Source: Escherichia coli (lineage in GTDB: Bacteria > Pseudomonadota > Gammaproteobacteria > Enterobacterales > Enterobacteriaceae). Taken from it: DNA of 30,915 nucleotides. The stretch lies in assembly GCF_003334335.1 (NCBI RefSeq), contig NZ_QOWQ01000048.1; one strand, written 5' to 3'. Numbering within the stretch: the stretch's first letter is position 1; every line of letters begins with the position of its first letter. Both the position numbers and the translations under genes were made by a program. Below are positions 1-30,915 of this stretch, one piece after another. The notes beneath the pieces are model-generated. The model was not told the DNA's origin, made no database searches, and saw only the letters and a list, made by a program, of their open reading frames with translations.

Positions 1-264
1 ATGAAGTTCCGGCTCGGTGGTTTCGAGGCCATAAAGTCGGCTTACATGGCCCAGGTGCAGTACAGCATGTGGGTGACACGAAAAGATGCCTGGTACTTTG
101 CCAACTATGACCCGCGTATGAAGCGTGAAGGACTGCATTATGTCGTGGTTGAGCGGGATGAAAAGTACATGGCGAGTTTTGACGAGATGGTGCCGGTGTT
201 CATCGAAAAAATGGACGAGGCACTGGCTGAAATTGGTTTTGTATTTGGGGAGCAATGGCGATGA
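1..264 (+). CDS. exo: Lambda-type exonuclease (Red-alpha), C-terminal fragment, 5'-partial at the window edge
   Basis: The 87-aa translation ending ...[11 protein letters not shown] matches the lambda Exo C-terminus as I recall it; the ATG at position 1 is internal to the real gene. Confidence 0.85.
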
Positions 265-443
265 CGCATCCTCACGATAATATCCGGGTAGGCGCAATCA
301 CTTTCGTCTACTCCGTTACAAAGCGAGGCTGGGTATTTCCCGGCCTTTCTGTTATCCGAAATCCACTGAAAGCACAGCGGCTGGCTGAGGAGATAAATAA
401 TAAACGAGGGGCTGTATGCACAAAGCATCTCCTGTTGAGTTAA
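255..443 (+). CDS. Small lambda orf60a-like protein
   Basis: A 62-aa ORF overlapping the exo 3' end, in the position and orientation of lambda orf60a. The true start may be the second ATG at 261. Confidence 0.65.
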
Positions 444-607
444 GAACGAGTATCGAGATGGCACATAGCCTTGCTCAAATTGGAATCAGGTTTGTGCCAA
501 TACCAGTAGAAACAGACGAAGAATTTCATACGTTAGCCACATCCCTTTCACAAAAACTGGAAATGATGGTGGCGAAAGCAGAAGCAGATGAGAGAGACCA
601 GGTATGA
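416..607 (+). CDS. Small lambda orf63-like protein
   Basis: A 63-aa ORF overlapping the previous ORF by 28 nt, the same arrangement as orf60a/orf63 in lambda. Confidence 0.7.
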   Translation: MHKASPVELRTSIEMAHSLAQIGIRFVPIPVETDEEFHTLATSLSQKLEMMVAKAEADERDQV

Positions 608-687
608 CAACCACTGAATGCATTTTTCTGGCAGCGGGCTTCATATTCTGTGTGCTTATGCTTGCCGACATGGGGCTTGTTCAGTGA
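604..687 (+). CDS. Possible 27-aa hydrophobic micropeptide (MTTTECIFLAAGFIFCVLMLADMGLVQ)
   Basis: Its ATG overlaps the orf63-like TGA stop in an ATGA arrangement (604..607). The sequence is a continuous hydrophobic stretch long enough for one transmembrane helix. Confidence 0.35.
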   Translation: MTTTECIFLAAGFIFCVLMLADMGLVQ

Positions 688-899
688 CACCTCAGCAGGA
701 AAACGCCCTTCGCAGCATTGCCCGTCAGGCTAATTCTGAAATCAAAAAAGCCAGACAGCAGTTTCCGGATAAAAACGTCGATGACATTTGCCGTAGCGTA
801 CTGAAGAAGCACCGCGAAACGGTAACGCTGATGGGATTCACACCGACTCACTTAAGTCTGGCAATCGGTATGTTAAACGGCGTCTTTAAGGAACGGTGA
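618..899 (+). CDS. Hypothetical protein in the orf61 region; start uncertain
   Basis: A 93-aa ORF in a third frame, followed by a hairpin plus T-run. It overlaps the micropeptide ORF, so which of the two is expressed is unresolved. Confidence 0.4.
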   Translation: MHFSGSGLHILCAYACRHGACSVTPQQENALRSIARQANSEIKKARQQFPDKNVDDICRSVLKKHRETVTLMGFTPTHLSLAIGMLNGVFKER

Positions 900-921
900 A
901 CATGAAAAGCAAAATCATCAG

Positions 922-945
922 GGAGCTACAGGCTCCTTTTTTATT
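922..945 (+). terminator. Intrinsic-terminator-like hairpin plus T-tract
   Basis: GGAGC-tacag-GCTCC followed by TTTTTTATT. Confidence 0.45.
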
Positions 946-997
946 ATTCGCATTCACCCTCAAGCGTATTAACCAACAATTCAGGGATTAATGGAAG

Positions 998-1219
998 ATG
1001 GCAGACCTCATTGATTCAGCATCAGAAATTGAAGAATTACAGCGCAACACAGCAATAAAAATGCGCCGCCTGAACCACCAGGCTATATCTGCCACTCATT
1101 GTTGTGAGTGTGGCGATCCGATAGATGAACGAAGACGCCTGGCCGTTCAGGGTTGTCGGACTTGTGCAAGTTGCCAGGAGGATCTGGAACTTATCAGTAA
1201 ACAGAGAGGTTCGAAGTGA
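998..1219 (+). CDS. TraR/DksA-family C4 zinc-finger protein (lambda Orf73-like)
   Basis: A 73-aa protein with CxxC...(17)...CxxC (CCECG...CRTCASC), typical of the TraR/DksA zinc finger. Its stop overlaps the next ORF's GTG (GTGA). Confidence 0.8.
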   Translation: MADLIDSASEIEELQRNTAIKMRRLNHQAISATHCCECGDPIDERRRLAVQGCRTCASCQEDLELISKQRGSK

Positions 1220-1467
1220 GCGTAATTCACTCTCAGGCACTGCGTGAAGCGGCAGAGCAGGCAATGCATGACAACTGGGGATTTGACGCGGACCTTTTCC
1301 ATGAGCTGGTAACACCATCGATTGTGCTGACACTGCTGGATGAACGGGAAAGAAACCAGCAGTACATCAAACGCCGCGACCAGGAGAACGAGGATATTGC
1401 GCTAACGGTGAGGAAACTGCGTGTTGAGCTGGAGACAGCAAAAATCAAAACTCAACGAGCAGCGTGA
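1216..1467 (+). CDS. Ea22-like protein, N-terminal part, ended by an in-frame TGA at 1465
   Basis: GTG start overlapping the upstream stop; the 83-aa product resembles the conserved Ea22 N-terminus (recalled, not searched). The same frame stays open after the TGA for 53 more codons, to a TAG at 1627..1629. Confidence 0.6.
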   Translation: MSVIHSQALREAAEQAMHDNWGFDADLFHELVTPSIVLTLLDERERNQQYIKRRDQENEDIALTVRKLRVELETAKIKTQRAA

Positions 1468-1765
1468 GTAGAAGGTGTTATCTCGGATGGAAGTAAGCGT
1501 ATTGCTGAACTGGAGGCCTGGGTTGAATACACAAGAGCTGCATACGTAAGAGCAAAAGACAAGGGAGATTTGATCAGAGTTATTACCCGACAACCAACGG
1601 GATTTTACGCTTACGTACCATGTAATTAGGAATCCTTGAAGTGGCAGCCTAACTGCGGATACACTGAAATGGCGATTTGGTAACATGTTTCGCACAAGGC
1701 TGTTACTACGCTTAAAGATAATCAGCCATGATTAAACGCTTTGTAAAAAGTAAAAGGAAATTACA

Positions 1766-2380
1766 ATGAAAAAATCAATACTAATTTTAGGGCTTACGTT
1801 AATTGTCTCATCTCAAATACCATCGGCAATGGCAAAAAATGAATCAAGACTTTGGGTTGTTGTTGATCGAACGGAAAGACATACCTGCCCTTCAAGTAAA
1901 TGTGGAGTGGCTGGGAAACTATTTTTCAGGGAAGGCGTAGATTTTCTAGAAAAAAAAGGTGAATGGGTTCGTATAACTGAGCCATATTCAGCCTCATGTG
2001 TGGGAGGGGAAAGCGAATATATTAAAGAAGGTAATAAATCCTGCACAAGAAAAAACGGAATCGTCAATGGCAAGTTTTCAGAATGGGTTAAACTTAGTGA
2101 TCTTAGCAGTGAAAGGCCATCAGATCCTGCTGAAAATGCGAGCGGAGATGATACTTTAATCAAAGGATCTGATGACTACCGTATATACAAAAAAGAGTTT
2201 TCTTCGGCAGCTAGGAAGTTAATAAACGAAGGGGTCTGCACGGAAAGCGACTTTAAGGAAATCGGAGGGTGGATGGCATCAAGCAATAAGGGGAAAAACA
2301 TCTATTTCACATATTGCGGAGGAATGACGTTGTCGAACAGAATATACCTAGACGTTAAAAGTGGAAAGACTTTTAGATAA
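1766..2380 (+). CDS. Hypothetical secreted (periplasmic) protein, 204 aa, AT-rich accessory gene
   Basis: SD AAGGAAA 8 nt upstream of the ATG. N-terminal signal peptide MKKSILILGLTLIVSSQIPSAMA with an AMA-K signal peptidase I site and no lipobox. The mature part has 7 Cys. Codon usage is visibly AT-rich compared with the flanking genes. Confidence 0.75.
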   Translation: MKKSILILGLTLIVSSQIPSAMAKNESRLWVVVDRTERHTCPSSKCGVAGKLFFREGVDFLEKKGEWVRITEPYSASCVGGESEYIKEGNKSCTRKNGIVNGKFSEWVKLSDLSSERPSDPAENASGDDTLIKGSDDYRIYKKEFSSAARKLINEGVCTESDFKEIGGWMASSNKGKNIYFTYCGGMTLSNRIYLDVKSGKTFR

Positions 2381-2451
2381 TATGATATTACCAATGACAG
2401 TATTAATTTAATGCCTCCATAGAATTATCTCTAGGAAGTATGTATAAGAAA

Positions 2452-2488
2452 AGCCCGCACAATGAGCTGCTGCGGGCTTTGTGTTATT
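2452..2488 (+). terminator. Intrinsic terminator downstream of the secreted-protein gene
   Basis: AGCCCGCA-(11-nt loop)-TGCGGGCT followed by TTGTGTTATT. Confidence 0.55.
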
Positions 2489-2673
2489 CGCCATATTTTA
2501 TGAAGCAAATACGACACTATAGATAATTAAGCGTTGCTGGTTGTCGATTCCTCACTCACTCCTGTTGATGGCTCTCTTCTTGTATGTGCCATTGAAGGGT
2601 AATATCGAGTAAAAAGATACCGGAAGTATCCGCGCCGCCATGATTGTCTTTCTCCTAATGCAGGAAAAGCAGA

Positions 2674-3012
2674 ATGGCTAAATCATCAGCAGAGCGCAAA
2701 GTCGATCAGAGAGCCAAGCAAGCATCATCCGGTATGCGTAAGCTGGAGCTTGTACTTGATGCTCAGGAAATTGAAATGCTGGATCGTAACTGAGCCACGC
2801 GCCGCTTCAGGCATGCGCCTTACGAGTTTGGTGAGTACATCGCGTTACTGAGCCGCCAGGATGATGCACGTGTGCGCTGGCGTATAAAATCGATCAGCAG
2901 AAAACGTTGCGGTAAGTGCGGCGAGAGAGTTCCTGTTAATTCATGCCCGTGTAATGGTGACTCACAATGCTGGGTGACCAAAGGCTGGCACGAAACAAAA
3001 TTAATGATATAA
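2674..3012 (+). pseudogene. Cys-rich small-protein ORF interrupted by a single in-frame TGA (2791..2793); possibly an ea8.5-type gene
   Basis: Frame 1 is open from 2644 to 3009 apart from the one TGA. The C-terminal half carries CGKC...CPC...C, a zinc-ribbon-like pattern. SD AGGAAA precedes the ATG at 2674. The ORF track shows no intact ORF of 60 aa or more on either strand here. Confidence 0.45.
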
Positions 3013-3040
3013 ATCTCTGTGACATGTCACGGAGGCGGCA

Positions 3041-3469
3041 ATGAAATTAGACCAGCAATATCTAAAAGATCTACTTATCGCATTCGAAAAAACTCATGGC
3101 CCTGACACGATGCTTAGTGAACTAGAGGATAATGGCTTTAATAGATATGACCAAAATTTTATTTTCCATATGCGATTATTATGCGACTACGAATTAATAG
3201 TCAGGGTTGATGGAAAACCTGGGTTCGGTCATATAATGTCCAACGAGTTAGGGGAAGGTGTTGGATATAGTTGGATCGAAGTACCACTGAGGTTGACAGC
3301 AAGAGGGCATGATTTTATTGCTGACTTGCGTCAAAAGGAGGTCTGGCAAACTATAAAAACAAACTTTAAGGATGAGGGAATTAGTACACTAATAAGTGTT
3401 TCAAAATCACTAGCAAAAGGCTTTGCAAGGAAAAAGATAAAAGATATTACAGGAATAGATATTGAATAA
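3041..3469 (+). CDS. Hypothetical cytoplasmic protein, 142 aa, AT-rich accessory gene
   Basis: Strong SD GGAGG 5 nt upstream. No signal peptide or transmembrane segment. Followed by its own terminator. No catalytic motif that I recognise. Confidence 0.7.
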   Translation: MKLDQQYLKDLLIAFEKTHGPDTMLSELEDNGFNRYDQNFIFHMRLLCDYELIVRVDGKPGFGHIMSNELGEGVGYSWIEVPLRLTARGHDFIADLRQKEVWQTIKTNFKDEGISTLISVSKSLAKGFARKKIKDITGIDIE

Positions 3470-3513
3470 TTCTTAGCATCAGCAACTACTGCCTTTGGTG
3501 GAAATTATATCTG

Positions 3514-3540
3514 AACTCGCTACGGCGAGTTTTGTTTTAT
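3514..3540 (+). terminator. Intrinsic terminator downstream of the 142-aa gene
   Basis: AACTCGC-tacg-GCGAGTT followed by TTGTTTTAT. Confidence 0.6.
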
Positions 3541-3551
3541 GGAGATGATAA

Positions 3552-3719
3552 ATGCACTTCCGAGTCACAGGTGAATGGAATGGAGAACCATTCAACAGAG
3601 TTATCGAAGCAGAGAACATCAATGACTGCTATGACCACTGGATGATATGGGCGCAGATAGCACATGCAGACATAACCAATATTCGAATTGAAGAACTGAA
3701 AGAACACCAAGCCGCCTGA
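3552..3719 (+). CDS. Hypothetical 55-aa protein upstream of xis
   Basis: GGAG 8 nt upstream of the ATG; the ORF ends inside a hairpin plus T-run. Confidence 0.4.
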   Translation: MHFRVTGEWNGEPFNRVIEAENINDCYDHWMIWAQIAHADITNIRIEELKEHQAA

Positions 3720-3732
3720 TGGCGGTTTTTTC
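3709..3732 (+). terminator. Terminator-like hairpin just upstream of xis
   Basis: CCGCC-tgat-GGCGG followed by TTTTTTC. In lambda-type logic this would be read through by antiterminated pL transcripts. Confidence 0.45.
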
Positions 3733-3758
3733 TTGCGTGTAATTGCGGAGACTTTGCG

Positions 3759-3977
3759 ATGTACTTGACACTTCAGGAGTGGAACGCTCGCCAGCGACGC
3801 CCAAGAAGCCTTGAAACAGTTCGTCGATGGGTGCGCGAATGCAGGATATTCCCTCCTCCGGTTAAGGATGGAAGAGAATATCTGTTCCACGAATCAGCGG
3901 TAAAGGTTGACTTAAATCGACCAGTAACAGGTAGCCTTTTGAAGAGGATCAGAAATGGGAAGAAGGCGAAGTCATGA
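3759..3977 (+). CDS. xis: Excisionase
   Basis: The 72-aa product MYLTLQEWNARQRRPRSLETVRRWVRECRIF... matches lambda Xis as I recall it; it overlaps the int start by 23 nt, as in lambda. Confidence 0.95.
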   Translation: MYLTLQEWNARQRRPRSLETVRRWVRECRIFPPPVKDGREYLFHESAVKVDLNRPVTGSLLKRIRNGKKAKS

Positions 3978-5025
3978 GCGCCGGGATTTACCCCCTAACC
4001 TTTATATAAGAAACAATGGATATTACTGCTACAGGGACCCAAGGACGGGTAAAGAGTTTGGATTAGGCCGAGACAGGCGAATCGCAATCACTGAAGCTAT
4101 ACAGGCCAACATTGAGTTATTTTCAGGACACAAACACAAGCCTCTGACAGCGAGAATCAACAGTGATAATTCCGTTACGTTACATTCATGGCTTGATCGC
4201 TACGAAAAAATCCTGGCCAGCAGAGGAATCAAGCAGAAGACACTCATAAATTACATGAGCAAAATTAAAGCAATAAGGAGGGGTCTGCCTGATGCTCCAC
4301 TTGAAGACATCACCACAAAAGAAATTGCGGCAATGCTCAATGGATACATAGACGAGGGAAAGGCGGCATCAGCCAAGTTAATCAGATCAACACTGAGCGA
4401 TGCATTCCGAGAGGCTATGGCTGAAGGCCATATAACAACAAACCCGGTCGCAGCCACTCGCGCTGCAAAATCAGAGGTAAGGAGATCAAGACTTACGGCT
4501 GACGAATACCTGAAAATTTATCAAGCAGCAGAATCATCACCATGTTGGCTTAGACTTGCAATGGAACTGGCTGTTGTTACCGGGCAGCGAGTTGGTGATT
4601 TATGCGAAATGAAGTGGTCTGATATCGTAGATGGATATCTTTATGTCGAGCAAAGCAAAACAGGCGTAAAAATTGCCATCCCAACAACATTGCATGTTGA
4701 TGCTCTCGGGATATCAATGAAGGAAACACTTGATAAATGCAAAAAGATTCTTGGCGGAGAAACCATAATTGCATCTACTCGTCGTGAACCGCTTTCATCC
4801 GGCACAGTATCAAGGTATTTTATGCGCGCACGAAAAGCATCAGGTCTCTCCTTCGAAGGGGATCCGCCAACCTTTCACGAGTTGCGCAGTTTGTCTGCAA
4901 GACTCTATGAGAAGCAGATAAGCGATAAATTTGCTCAACATCTTCTCGGGCATAAGTCGGACACCATGGCATCACAGTATCGTGATGACAGAGGCAGGGA
5001 GTGGGACAAAATTGAAATCAAATAA
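3955..5025 (+). CDS. int: Tyrosine integrase, lambda Int type
   Basis: The 356-aa product MGRRRSHERRDLPPNLYIRNNGYYCYRDPRTGKEF... is essentially lambda Int by recollection; its 3' end faces the att site. Confidence 0.97.
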   Translation: MGRRRSHERRDLPPNLYIRNNGYYCYRDPRTGKEFGLGRDRRIAITEAIQANIELFSGHKHKPLTARINSDNSVTLHSWLDRYEKILASRGIKQKTLINYMSKIKAIRRGLPDAPLEDITTKEIAAMLNGYIDEGKAASAKLIRSTLSDAFREAMAEGHITTNPVAATRAAKSEVRRSRLTADEYLKIYQAAESSPCWLRLAMELAVVTGQRVGDLCEMKWSDIVDGYLYVEQSKTGVKIAIPTTLHVDALGISMKETLDKCKKILGGETIIASTRREPLSSGTVSRYFMRARKASGLSFEGDPPTFHELRSLSARLYEKQISDKFAQHLLGHKSDTMASQYRDDRGREWDKIEIK

Positions 5026-5113
5026 TGATTTTATTTTGACTGATAGTGACCTGTTCGTTGCAACAAATTGATAAGCAATGCTTTTTTATAATGCCAACTT
5101 AGTATAAAAAAGC
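5026..5113. other. attL (B-O-P') junction: P' arm with Int arm-type sites and the 15-bp common core
   Basis: The core TTAGTATAAAAAAGC at 5099..5113 is the reverse complement of the lambda att core GCTTTTTTATACTAA. Arm-type sites ATTTTGACTG and ATAGTGACCT lie at about 5034..5053. Host B-side sequence AGGCTTCA follows the core. Confidence 0.85.
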
Positions 5114-6448: not shown

Positions 6449-6660
<212 letters not shown>

Positions 6661-30356: not shown

Positions 30357-30428
30357 CTTACCATCTCGTTTTACAGGCTTAACGTTAAAACCGACATTAG
30401 CGTAATATTCGCTGTTATCGGTGTAATT

Positions 30429-30446
30429 TGTTTTATATGCTAAACA
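30429..30446. promoter_or_regulatory. Probable NadR operator half-site palindrome in the nadA promoter
   Basis: TGTTTTATATGCTAAACA, a TGTTTA/TAAACA inverted repeat. Confidence 0.5.
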
Positions 30447-30601
30447 AGATAGTCGAATGGTGGGGAAAAGTCACTCGAATTACGCCTAATGTGCAGGATG
30501 CGTCATTTTACGCCTAATTCCACCGACATAGAGTTGCTTGCACAGTAAGCTCTGACGATGTCATCAGGTTTACAAAGTGAAATTGAGGATGCCTGAATAG
30601 C

Positions 30602-30630
30602 AAAAAAGCGCCTTTAGGGCGCTTTTTTAC
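30602..30630 (-). terminator. Terminator hairpin at the end of the tRNA operon; bidirectional-looking
   Basis: AAAAAAGCGCC-ttta-GGGCGCTTTTTT. Confidence 0.6.
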
Positions 30631-30632
30631 AT

Positions 30633-30708
30633 TGGTGGGTCGTGCAGGATTCGAACCTGCGACCAATTGATTAAAAGTCAACTGCTCTACCAACTGAGCT
30701 AACGACCC
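30633..30708 (-). tRNA. lysQ: tRNA-Lys (anticodon UUU), with encoded CCA
   Basis: The reverse complement reads GGGTCGTTAGCTCAGTTGGTAGAGCAGTTGACTTTTAATCAATTGGTCGCAGGTTCGAATCCTGCACGACCCACCA. The lysQ name is assigned by position and is tentative. Confidence 0.93.
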
Positions 30709-30840
30709 CTTGCGGGATTATGCTGCCTTAATCATTCAGGATGGTGGGTCGTGCAGGATGACTCGACTTCGTCTCGCCCTTCGGGCCGTTGCTAACGCAA
30801 CGTTATCCTTCACGTTCTCTACCAGTAACCACCTTTAAAT

Positions 30841-30915
30841 TGGTGGGTCGTGCAGGATTCGAACCTGCGACCAATTGATTAAAAGTCAACTGCTCTACCA
30901 ACTGAGCTAACGACC
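30841..30915 (-). tRNA. lysZ: tRNA-Lys (UUU), second copy, missing its first 5' nucleotide at the window edge
   Basis: Identical to the 30633..30708 copy over 75 nt. The gene name is tentative. Confidence 0.9.

Follow-up and report, generated by a model that had tools for sequence, protein, structure and literature searches.

The window analysed here is a 30,915-nucleotide stretch of Escherichia coli DNA (contig NZ_QOWQ01000048.1, assembly GCF_003334335.1). A plus-strand open reading frame, orf73, occupies positions 998-1219 in the program-made ORF list and consists of an ATG start, 73 codons in all and a TGA stop. Its translation product of 73 aa, MADLIDSASEIEELQRNTAIKMRRLNHQAISATHCCECGDPIDERRRLAVQGCRTCASCQEDLELISKQRGSK, contains a DxxDxA motif in codons 3-8 (D3-L4-I5-D6-S7-A8; 1004-1021, plus strand), a C4 zinc finger of the form CxxC-17-CxxC in codons 35-59 (C35, C38, C56 and C59; 1100-1174, plus strand) and an ExxRL motif in codons 44-48 (1127-1141, plus strand). 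All three were located by motif search; the zinc finger was also placed by the Pfam alignment and ExxRL by alignment to TraR. An earlier reading made from the letters of this DNA (the sequence-only reading) had described a 73-aa frame with a C4 zinc-finger signature, and both its coordinates and the signature proved exact. Two further cysteines, C36 and C53, are present as in lambda Orf73. The Shine-Dalgarno-like AGGGA at 983-987 (plus strand), read from the sequence, ends 10 nt before the ATG, is also kept in lambda, EC416 and 933W, and presumably serves the orf73 translation start. Antisense frames at 1037-1333 and 988-1095 (both minus strand), which overlap orf73, were set aside as being without support.

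The surrounding genes follow the order of the lambda exo-xis block in the pL direction, exo-orf60a-orf63-orf61-orf73-ea22...xis-int-attL. The window starts inside exo, whose C-terminus is encoded at 1-264, so that the upstream part of the prophage lies beyond it. Orf60a-like and orf63-like frames are followed by an orf61-like ORF of 93 aa (618-899), and on the other side of orf73 and ea22 are located variable genes, an orf55-like ORF of 55 aa (3552-3719, PHROG_676), xis (3759-3977) and int (3955-5025). The lambda att core, GCTTTTTTATACTAA, is found downstream of int at 5099-5113. Beyond it lie the host genes ybhC, ybhJ, the mod genes, the gal genes and nadA; since these host genes follow the att core, the window represents the gal-proximal (attL) end of a lambdoid prophage in att-lambda.

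Several features of this region deserve mention in their own right. The 93-aa form of the orf61-like ORF also occurs in 933W (L0070), while lambda has two frames in the corresponding region, orf61 (61 aa) and a separate one of 60 aa; lambda orf61 may thus be a frameshifted form of a longer ancestral gene. The slot held by ea8.5 in lambda is taken by a 204-aa ORF (1766-2380), whose product contains several cysteines and has a hydrophobic N-terminus resembling a signal peptide. This ORF matches PHROG_8310 (unknown function) from end to end (E=3.6e-136) and gave no PADLOC match. The 55-aa ORF at 3552-3719 sits just before xis, where lambda has orf55 (lambdap35), next to a gene for a DUF2513 protein (3041-3469, PHROG_585). 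Lambda orf55 has been modelled as a T7 Gp2-like RNA polymerase modulator (PMC8614690). If that model is right, the block encodes two putative small proteins directed at RNA polymerase. In the host DNA, Rfam detected naRNA4, a REP-derived nucleoid-associated RNA, between ybhC and ybhJ (6512-6582, minus strand), as well as tRNAs and an RtT element at 30636-30915 (minus strand). Colinearity with EC416 is lost from about 30650, which suggests an indel or a copy-number difference in the tRNA/RtT array. No Rfam match was obtained at or near orf73.

The sequence-only reading had assigned the product to the TraR/DksA family, and matches to this family were returned by all four libraries, Pfam, PHROGs, NCBIfam and PDB; the outcome that it had named as refuting, profile searches that find no member of the family, did not occur. 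The Pfam profile zf-dskA_traR (PF01258) was matched by residues 33-64 over positions 4-35 of a 36-position model (E=1.1e-8, 35.4 bits), and PHROG_54 ('DksA-like zinc-finger protein') was matched across the entire product (E=3.8e-25). A significant profile match and the CxxC-17-CxxC spacing together place the protein in PF01258. It also has the features of the TraR subfamily, namely a length of 73 aa (about 70-80 expected), DxxDxA and an Arg pair. The NCBIfam profile TIGR02419 (C4_traR_proteo, 'phage/conjugal plasmid C-4 type zinc finger protein, TraR family') was aligned over its full length (1-64 of 64; E=1.1e-14), at 54.8 bits against a curated cut-off of 59.7. The TraR equivalog NF010268 yielded 26.3 bits, below its cut-off of 108, and all four NCBIfam matches of the product remained under their curated cut-offs. 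Because the scores for TIGR02419 and NF010268 fall below these thresholds, the protein, judged by its profile scores, is a homologue of F TraR rather than a TraR equivalog. The RefSeq name of a near-identical protein, which differs in one residue, is 'TraR/DksA family transcriptional regulator'.

Its best sequence relatives in PDB were E. coli YbiI (2KGO) and RNA polymerase-bound F-plasmid TraR, the TraR chains 5w1s_M and 6n57_M being matched at E of about 1e-4. The alignments proposed in the sequence-only reading gave 34% identity over 62 residues to F TraR (BLASTP, E=8e-10) and 97% to lambda Orf73. In the alignment with TraR, the four Cys columns and D3, D6 and A8 are invariant, and R46 and R47 correspond pairwise to TraR R48 and R49. 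An AlphaFold2 model built on a four-sequence alignment shows, at a mean pLDDT of only 65, the TraR-subfamily layout of a single N-terminal helix (3-28), a zinc ribbon and a C-terminal helix (57-71). A Foldseek search of PDB with this model placed TraR (6n57_M) and DksA on top with non-significant E-values of 0.04-0.1. The structural outcome is consistent with membership in the TraR/DksA family and is no independent proof of it. For comparison, the published AlphaFold model of lambda Orf73 has a pLDDT of 93 (PMC8614690).

The lambda counterpart, an ORF at complement 30392..30613, encodes a protein identical to the window product in 71 of 73 residues. The two substitutions are I4L and V49A. Residue 4 is a variable 'x' position of DxxDxA, occupied by Glu in TraR, and L4 is the allele of 933W; residue 49 aligns with TraR I51, directly after the RR pair, and A49 is the commonest allele among the sampled copies. 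Both substitutions are probably neutral, as far as these comparisons tell. At the DNA level, an A-to-G exchange 4 nt before the ATG also separates the window from lambda. The 933W copy encodes a protein identical at 73 of 73 residues, with three synonymous nucleotide differences. Given the full-length identity to lambda Orf73, the position between orf61 and ea22 and the 4-nt overlap with the latter, the ORF is, by sequence and position, the orthologue of lambda orf73. It shares with lambda the length of 73 aa, all six cysteines in place, DxxDxA, RR, ExxRL, the upstream hairpin and the Shine-Dalgarno-like sequence; it differs in I4L, V49A, the exchange at -4, a truncated ea22 and a resident prophage that is probably defective. 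The 933W protein (the group also includes VT2-Sakai and Phi24B) is accompanied by the same hairpin and GTGA junction, but 933W is an inducible Stx phage integrated elsewhere, with an intact 257-aa Ea22-like protein (L0069) encoded downstream, whereas the window copy resides at att-lambda.

The variation of the gene was examined in 83 copies, comprising the window, lambda, EC416 and 80 IMG/VR loci. Among them, 24 distinct DNA alleles encode only seven protein variants, 11 of the 20 polymorphic sites fall in codons with a constant amino acid, and the crude per-site ratio of non-synonymous to synonymous changes is about 0.23. The positions of D3, D6, A8, the cysteines and R46/R47 show no variation. 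The allele pattern indicates that orf73 is under purifying selection; with 24 alleles giving seven proteins at a ratio of about 0.23, it is a real gene and not a chance ORF. The identical protein is encoded in 18 IMG/VR viral contigs, and orf73 was detected in 3316 of 5426 complete E. coli genomes (61%), with at most six copies per genome.

EC416 and ATCC 8739 are 99.9% identical to the window over positions 1-5100. All six differences to EC416 in this part (851, 860, 869, 884, 994 and 1007) are confined to 157 nt spanning the 3' end of the orf61-like gene and the 5' end of orf73, and the next 25 kb of host DNA differ from EC416 by only four SNPs. The clustering suggests that segment 851-1007 is a short tract brought in from another lambdoid phage by recombination or gene conversion. 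A private origin of I4L and of the A-to-G exchange at -4 was ruled out, as positions 840-1020 occur exactly in seven other lambdoid contigs and L4 is present in 933W.

The stop codon of orf73 (TGA, 1217-1219) is overlapped by the GTG start of the ea22-like ORF (1216-1218), which yields a GTGA overlap at 1216-1219 (plus strand; sequence and ORF list). In the annotations, ea22 of lambda and L0069 of 933W both begin at this GTG, and the junction GAAGTGAGCG shows no variation among the 83 copies. Translational coupling of orf73 and ea22, as claimed in the sequence-only reading, is suggested by this conserved 4-nt overlap. The overlap itself is real; the partner, however, is a truncated ORF of 83 aa (1216-1467, plus strand; DNA alignment to lambda and BLASTP) against 182 aa in lambda. 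Over the first 78 residues, its product shares 92% identity with lambda Ea22. Relative to lambda, an extra A in the A-run at 1440-1444 leads to the TGA at 1465-1467, and deletion of four nucleotides (TTAC) between 1470 and 1471 restores the lambda frame, the rest of which extends past the premature stop from 1468 to 1629 (plus strand; alignment to lambda and sequence reading). After about 1515 the sequence diverges completely from lambda. The identical truncation to 83 aa was found in 13 of the 83 copies, and the EC416 ea22-like gene is listed in RefSeq as a frameshifted pseudogene.

The lambda protein has been characterised in detail. In experiments with the purified protein, Orf73 and DksA compete for the DksA site on E. 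coli RNA polymerase (Gopalkrishnan et al., mBio 2022, PMC9239242). Like TraR, Orf73 inhibits rrnB P1 without ppGpp, with an IC50 of about 50 nM; rpsT P2 is also inhibited, and the D3N or D6N exchange largely abolishes inhibition (PMC9239242). The in vitro test on rRNA promoters that the sequence-only reading had proposed is thus already in the literature for lambda Orf73, with the predicted outcome. The protein complements a dksA-null strain, and its gene is expressed from pL in early lytic growth (PMC9239242). In vivo, lambda Orf73 lowers the synthesis of rRNA precursor and rpsT mRNA, slows host growth and raises the phage yield 3-4 fold (PMC9239242). Unlike TraR, it activates thrABC, argI and rpoH P3 weakly if at all, and the authors suggested that the two extra cysteines may underlie this poor activation (PMC9239242); both of them are also present in the window protein. 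TraR R48/R49 contact the rim helices and the beta' Si3 (PMC9239242), and ExxRK/ExxRL has been described as a hallmark motif (PMC8614690). All motifs named in PMC9239242 are intact in the window copy, which has DxxDxA, CxxC-17-CxxC, RR and ExxRL.

The similarity to F TraR (5W1S, 6N57) comprises the length of 73 aa, the helix/zinc ribbon/helix arrangement, DxxDxA at residues 3-8, CxxC-17-CxxC, RR and ppGpp-independent binding in the secondary channel, for lambda Orf73 as judged by competition with DksA. In TraR, the DxxDxA helix tip reaches the active-site region of RNA polymerase. The differences include an identity of only 32-34%, the two extra cysteines, ExxRL instead of ExxRK, and the location in a phage early operon instead of a conjugation operon. 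DksA and YbiI (7KHI, 2KGO) share the PF01258 C4 zinc finger, and DksA uses the same channel of RNA polymerase. DksA, however, has about twice the length, its acidic tip is carried by a coiled coil and it is fully active only with ppGpp; in Orf73 and TraR a single N-terminal helix takes the place of the coiled coil, and no cofactor is required.

We consider it highly probable, by analogy with these characterised proteins, that the ORF is orf73 of a lambdoid prophage at att-lambda and that its product, a member of the TraR branch, would work like lambda Orf73 and TraR if made. Such a protein would have its binding site in the secondary channel of the host RNA polymerase, make no contact with DNA and need no ppGpp. 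Its N-terminal helix would set the DxxDxA tip near the active site, the globular zinc-ribbon domain would rest on the rim helices and beta' Si3 via R46 and R47, and a further contact, to beta Si1, would come from the C-terminal helix. Open-complex formation would then be inhibited at rRNA and ribosomal-protein promoters. During lytic growth, the cell would be diverted from ribosome synthesis and the phage yield would rise. To go by the literature on the lambda protein, inhibition would be like that by TraR, and activation probably would not.

Whether the gene is read where it now lies is a separate matter. A consensus scan revealed a terminator-like hairpin at 920-948 (plus strand), AGGGAGC-TAC-AGGCTCCTT followed by the T-run TTTTATTATT, in the gap between orf61 and orf73, 60 nt upstream of the orf73 ATG. 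It is identical in lambda and 933W, and an exact match precedes 54 of the 83 copies. The hairpin may be one of the named tL terminators of lambda. An attempt to equate it with a particular one, e.g., tL3, was given up, the literature found being limited to vector papers without sequence or coordinates, and the lambda records NC_001416 and J02459 have no terminators annotated at this site. During growth of an intact phage, polymerase modified by N would presumably pass the hairpin; in a remnant devoid of N, the hairpin would be expected to block incoming transcription.

The prophage of the EC416 type is such a remnant. In EC416, the element at att-lambda (3913900-3937800) is a roughly 24-kb DLP12-like remnant in which the 3' parts of ren and of recT/bet have been joined to each other, with loss of pL, N, cI, cro, O and P. 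Genes for immunity, replication and the phage head are absent, as are most of those for morphogenesis, and the element also carries IS2 and an ompC paralogue. The description 'phage-encoded' in the sequence-only reading needs to be narrowed to prophage-encoded, in an element that survives as a defective, pL-less remnant in near-identical genomes. Expression of the window copy in situ is doubtful, because the closest genomes are without pL, N and cI and because the hairpin lies 60 nt upstream.

An intact orf73 may accordingly be a silent passenger, unexpressed and idle in a decayed, non-inducible remnant without pL, N and cI, and we regard this as a serious possibility that falls somewhat short of an even chance. 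The gene content of the 99.9%-identical genomes, with the ren'-recT' fusion, argues for it, as do the neighbouring pseudogenes (the ea22-like gene, a fragment of a 'DNA repair protein' gene and an ORF with an internal stop), the hairpin and the finding that the consensus scan returned no plus-strand promoter-like site between exo and orf73. On the other hand, the upstream region proper to this prophage lies beyond the window, neither the ORF nor any of its functional motifs is damaged, and three plus-strand promoter-like sites, as consensus matches only, precede recT' in EC416. Intactness proves little either way, a gene of 222 nt being a small mutational target.

The biochemistry may also be as proposed and the role another one, namely a pro-lysogenic function or a block of host replication (the 'bin' phenotype of the exo-xis region) instead of an increase in lytic yield; this we hold to be unlikely. 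As cited in PMC8614690 and PMC9239242, deletion of orf73 in lambda and Phi24B leads to lower host survival after infection and less lysogenisation, and the cluster containing orf73, ea22, ea8.5 and orf55 inhibits the initiation of host DNA replication. The dnaA P2 promoter is indeed inhibited in vitro by lambda Orf73 at about 420 nM, but dnaA mRNA is reduced only weakly in vivo, if at all (PMC9239242). Moreover, point mutants and an in-frame deletion that avoided polar effects gave a 3-4 fold lower yield (PMC9239242), which speaks against the pro-lysogenic role and for the lytic one.

Far less probable still is domestication of the copy in the pL-less att-lambda remnant, by which a host-controlled or fortuitous promoter would turn it into a ppGpp-independent brake on rRNA synthesis for the benefit of the host. 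Were this so, the benefit might arise, e.g., under stress or superinfection, and it could be part of the reason that one or more intact copies persist in 61% of complete E. coli genomes.

A chance ORF or an unrelated small zinc ribbon (DNA-binding or nuclease-associated) can virtually be dismissed: the stray matches to Pfam C1_1 (E=0.07) and RecO_C (E=0.11), the sole PADLOC match, mREase_II (E=0.006), set aside as zinc-finger noise, and many Foldseek matches to unrelated zinc fingers (E>2) stand against specific matches that are all TraR/DksA, with E-values lower by 6 to 20 orders of magnitude, against an identity of 97-100% to a protein studied by experiment, an allele pattern of purifying selection and the translation of lambda orf73, cited in PMC8614690 and PMC9239242 as confirmed by ribosome profiling.

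The highly probable reading thus remains that of a TraR-branch, lambda-type Orf73 encoded at the attL end of a lambdoid prophage. The sequence, family, structural model, biochemistry and phenotype of orf73 are all known already, and the window copy fits this published picture with no departure from it. It is of value for annotation: NC_001416 and J02459 have no gene annotated between ea22 and orf61, and orf73 is likewise unannotated in the 933W record AF125520, so that a characterised gene is absent from all of these records. A modest biological interest attaches to copies stranded in defective prophages, which may be expressed and may affect the growth control of their hosts.
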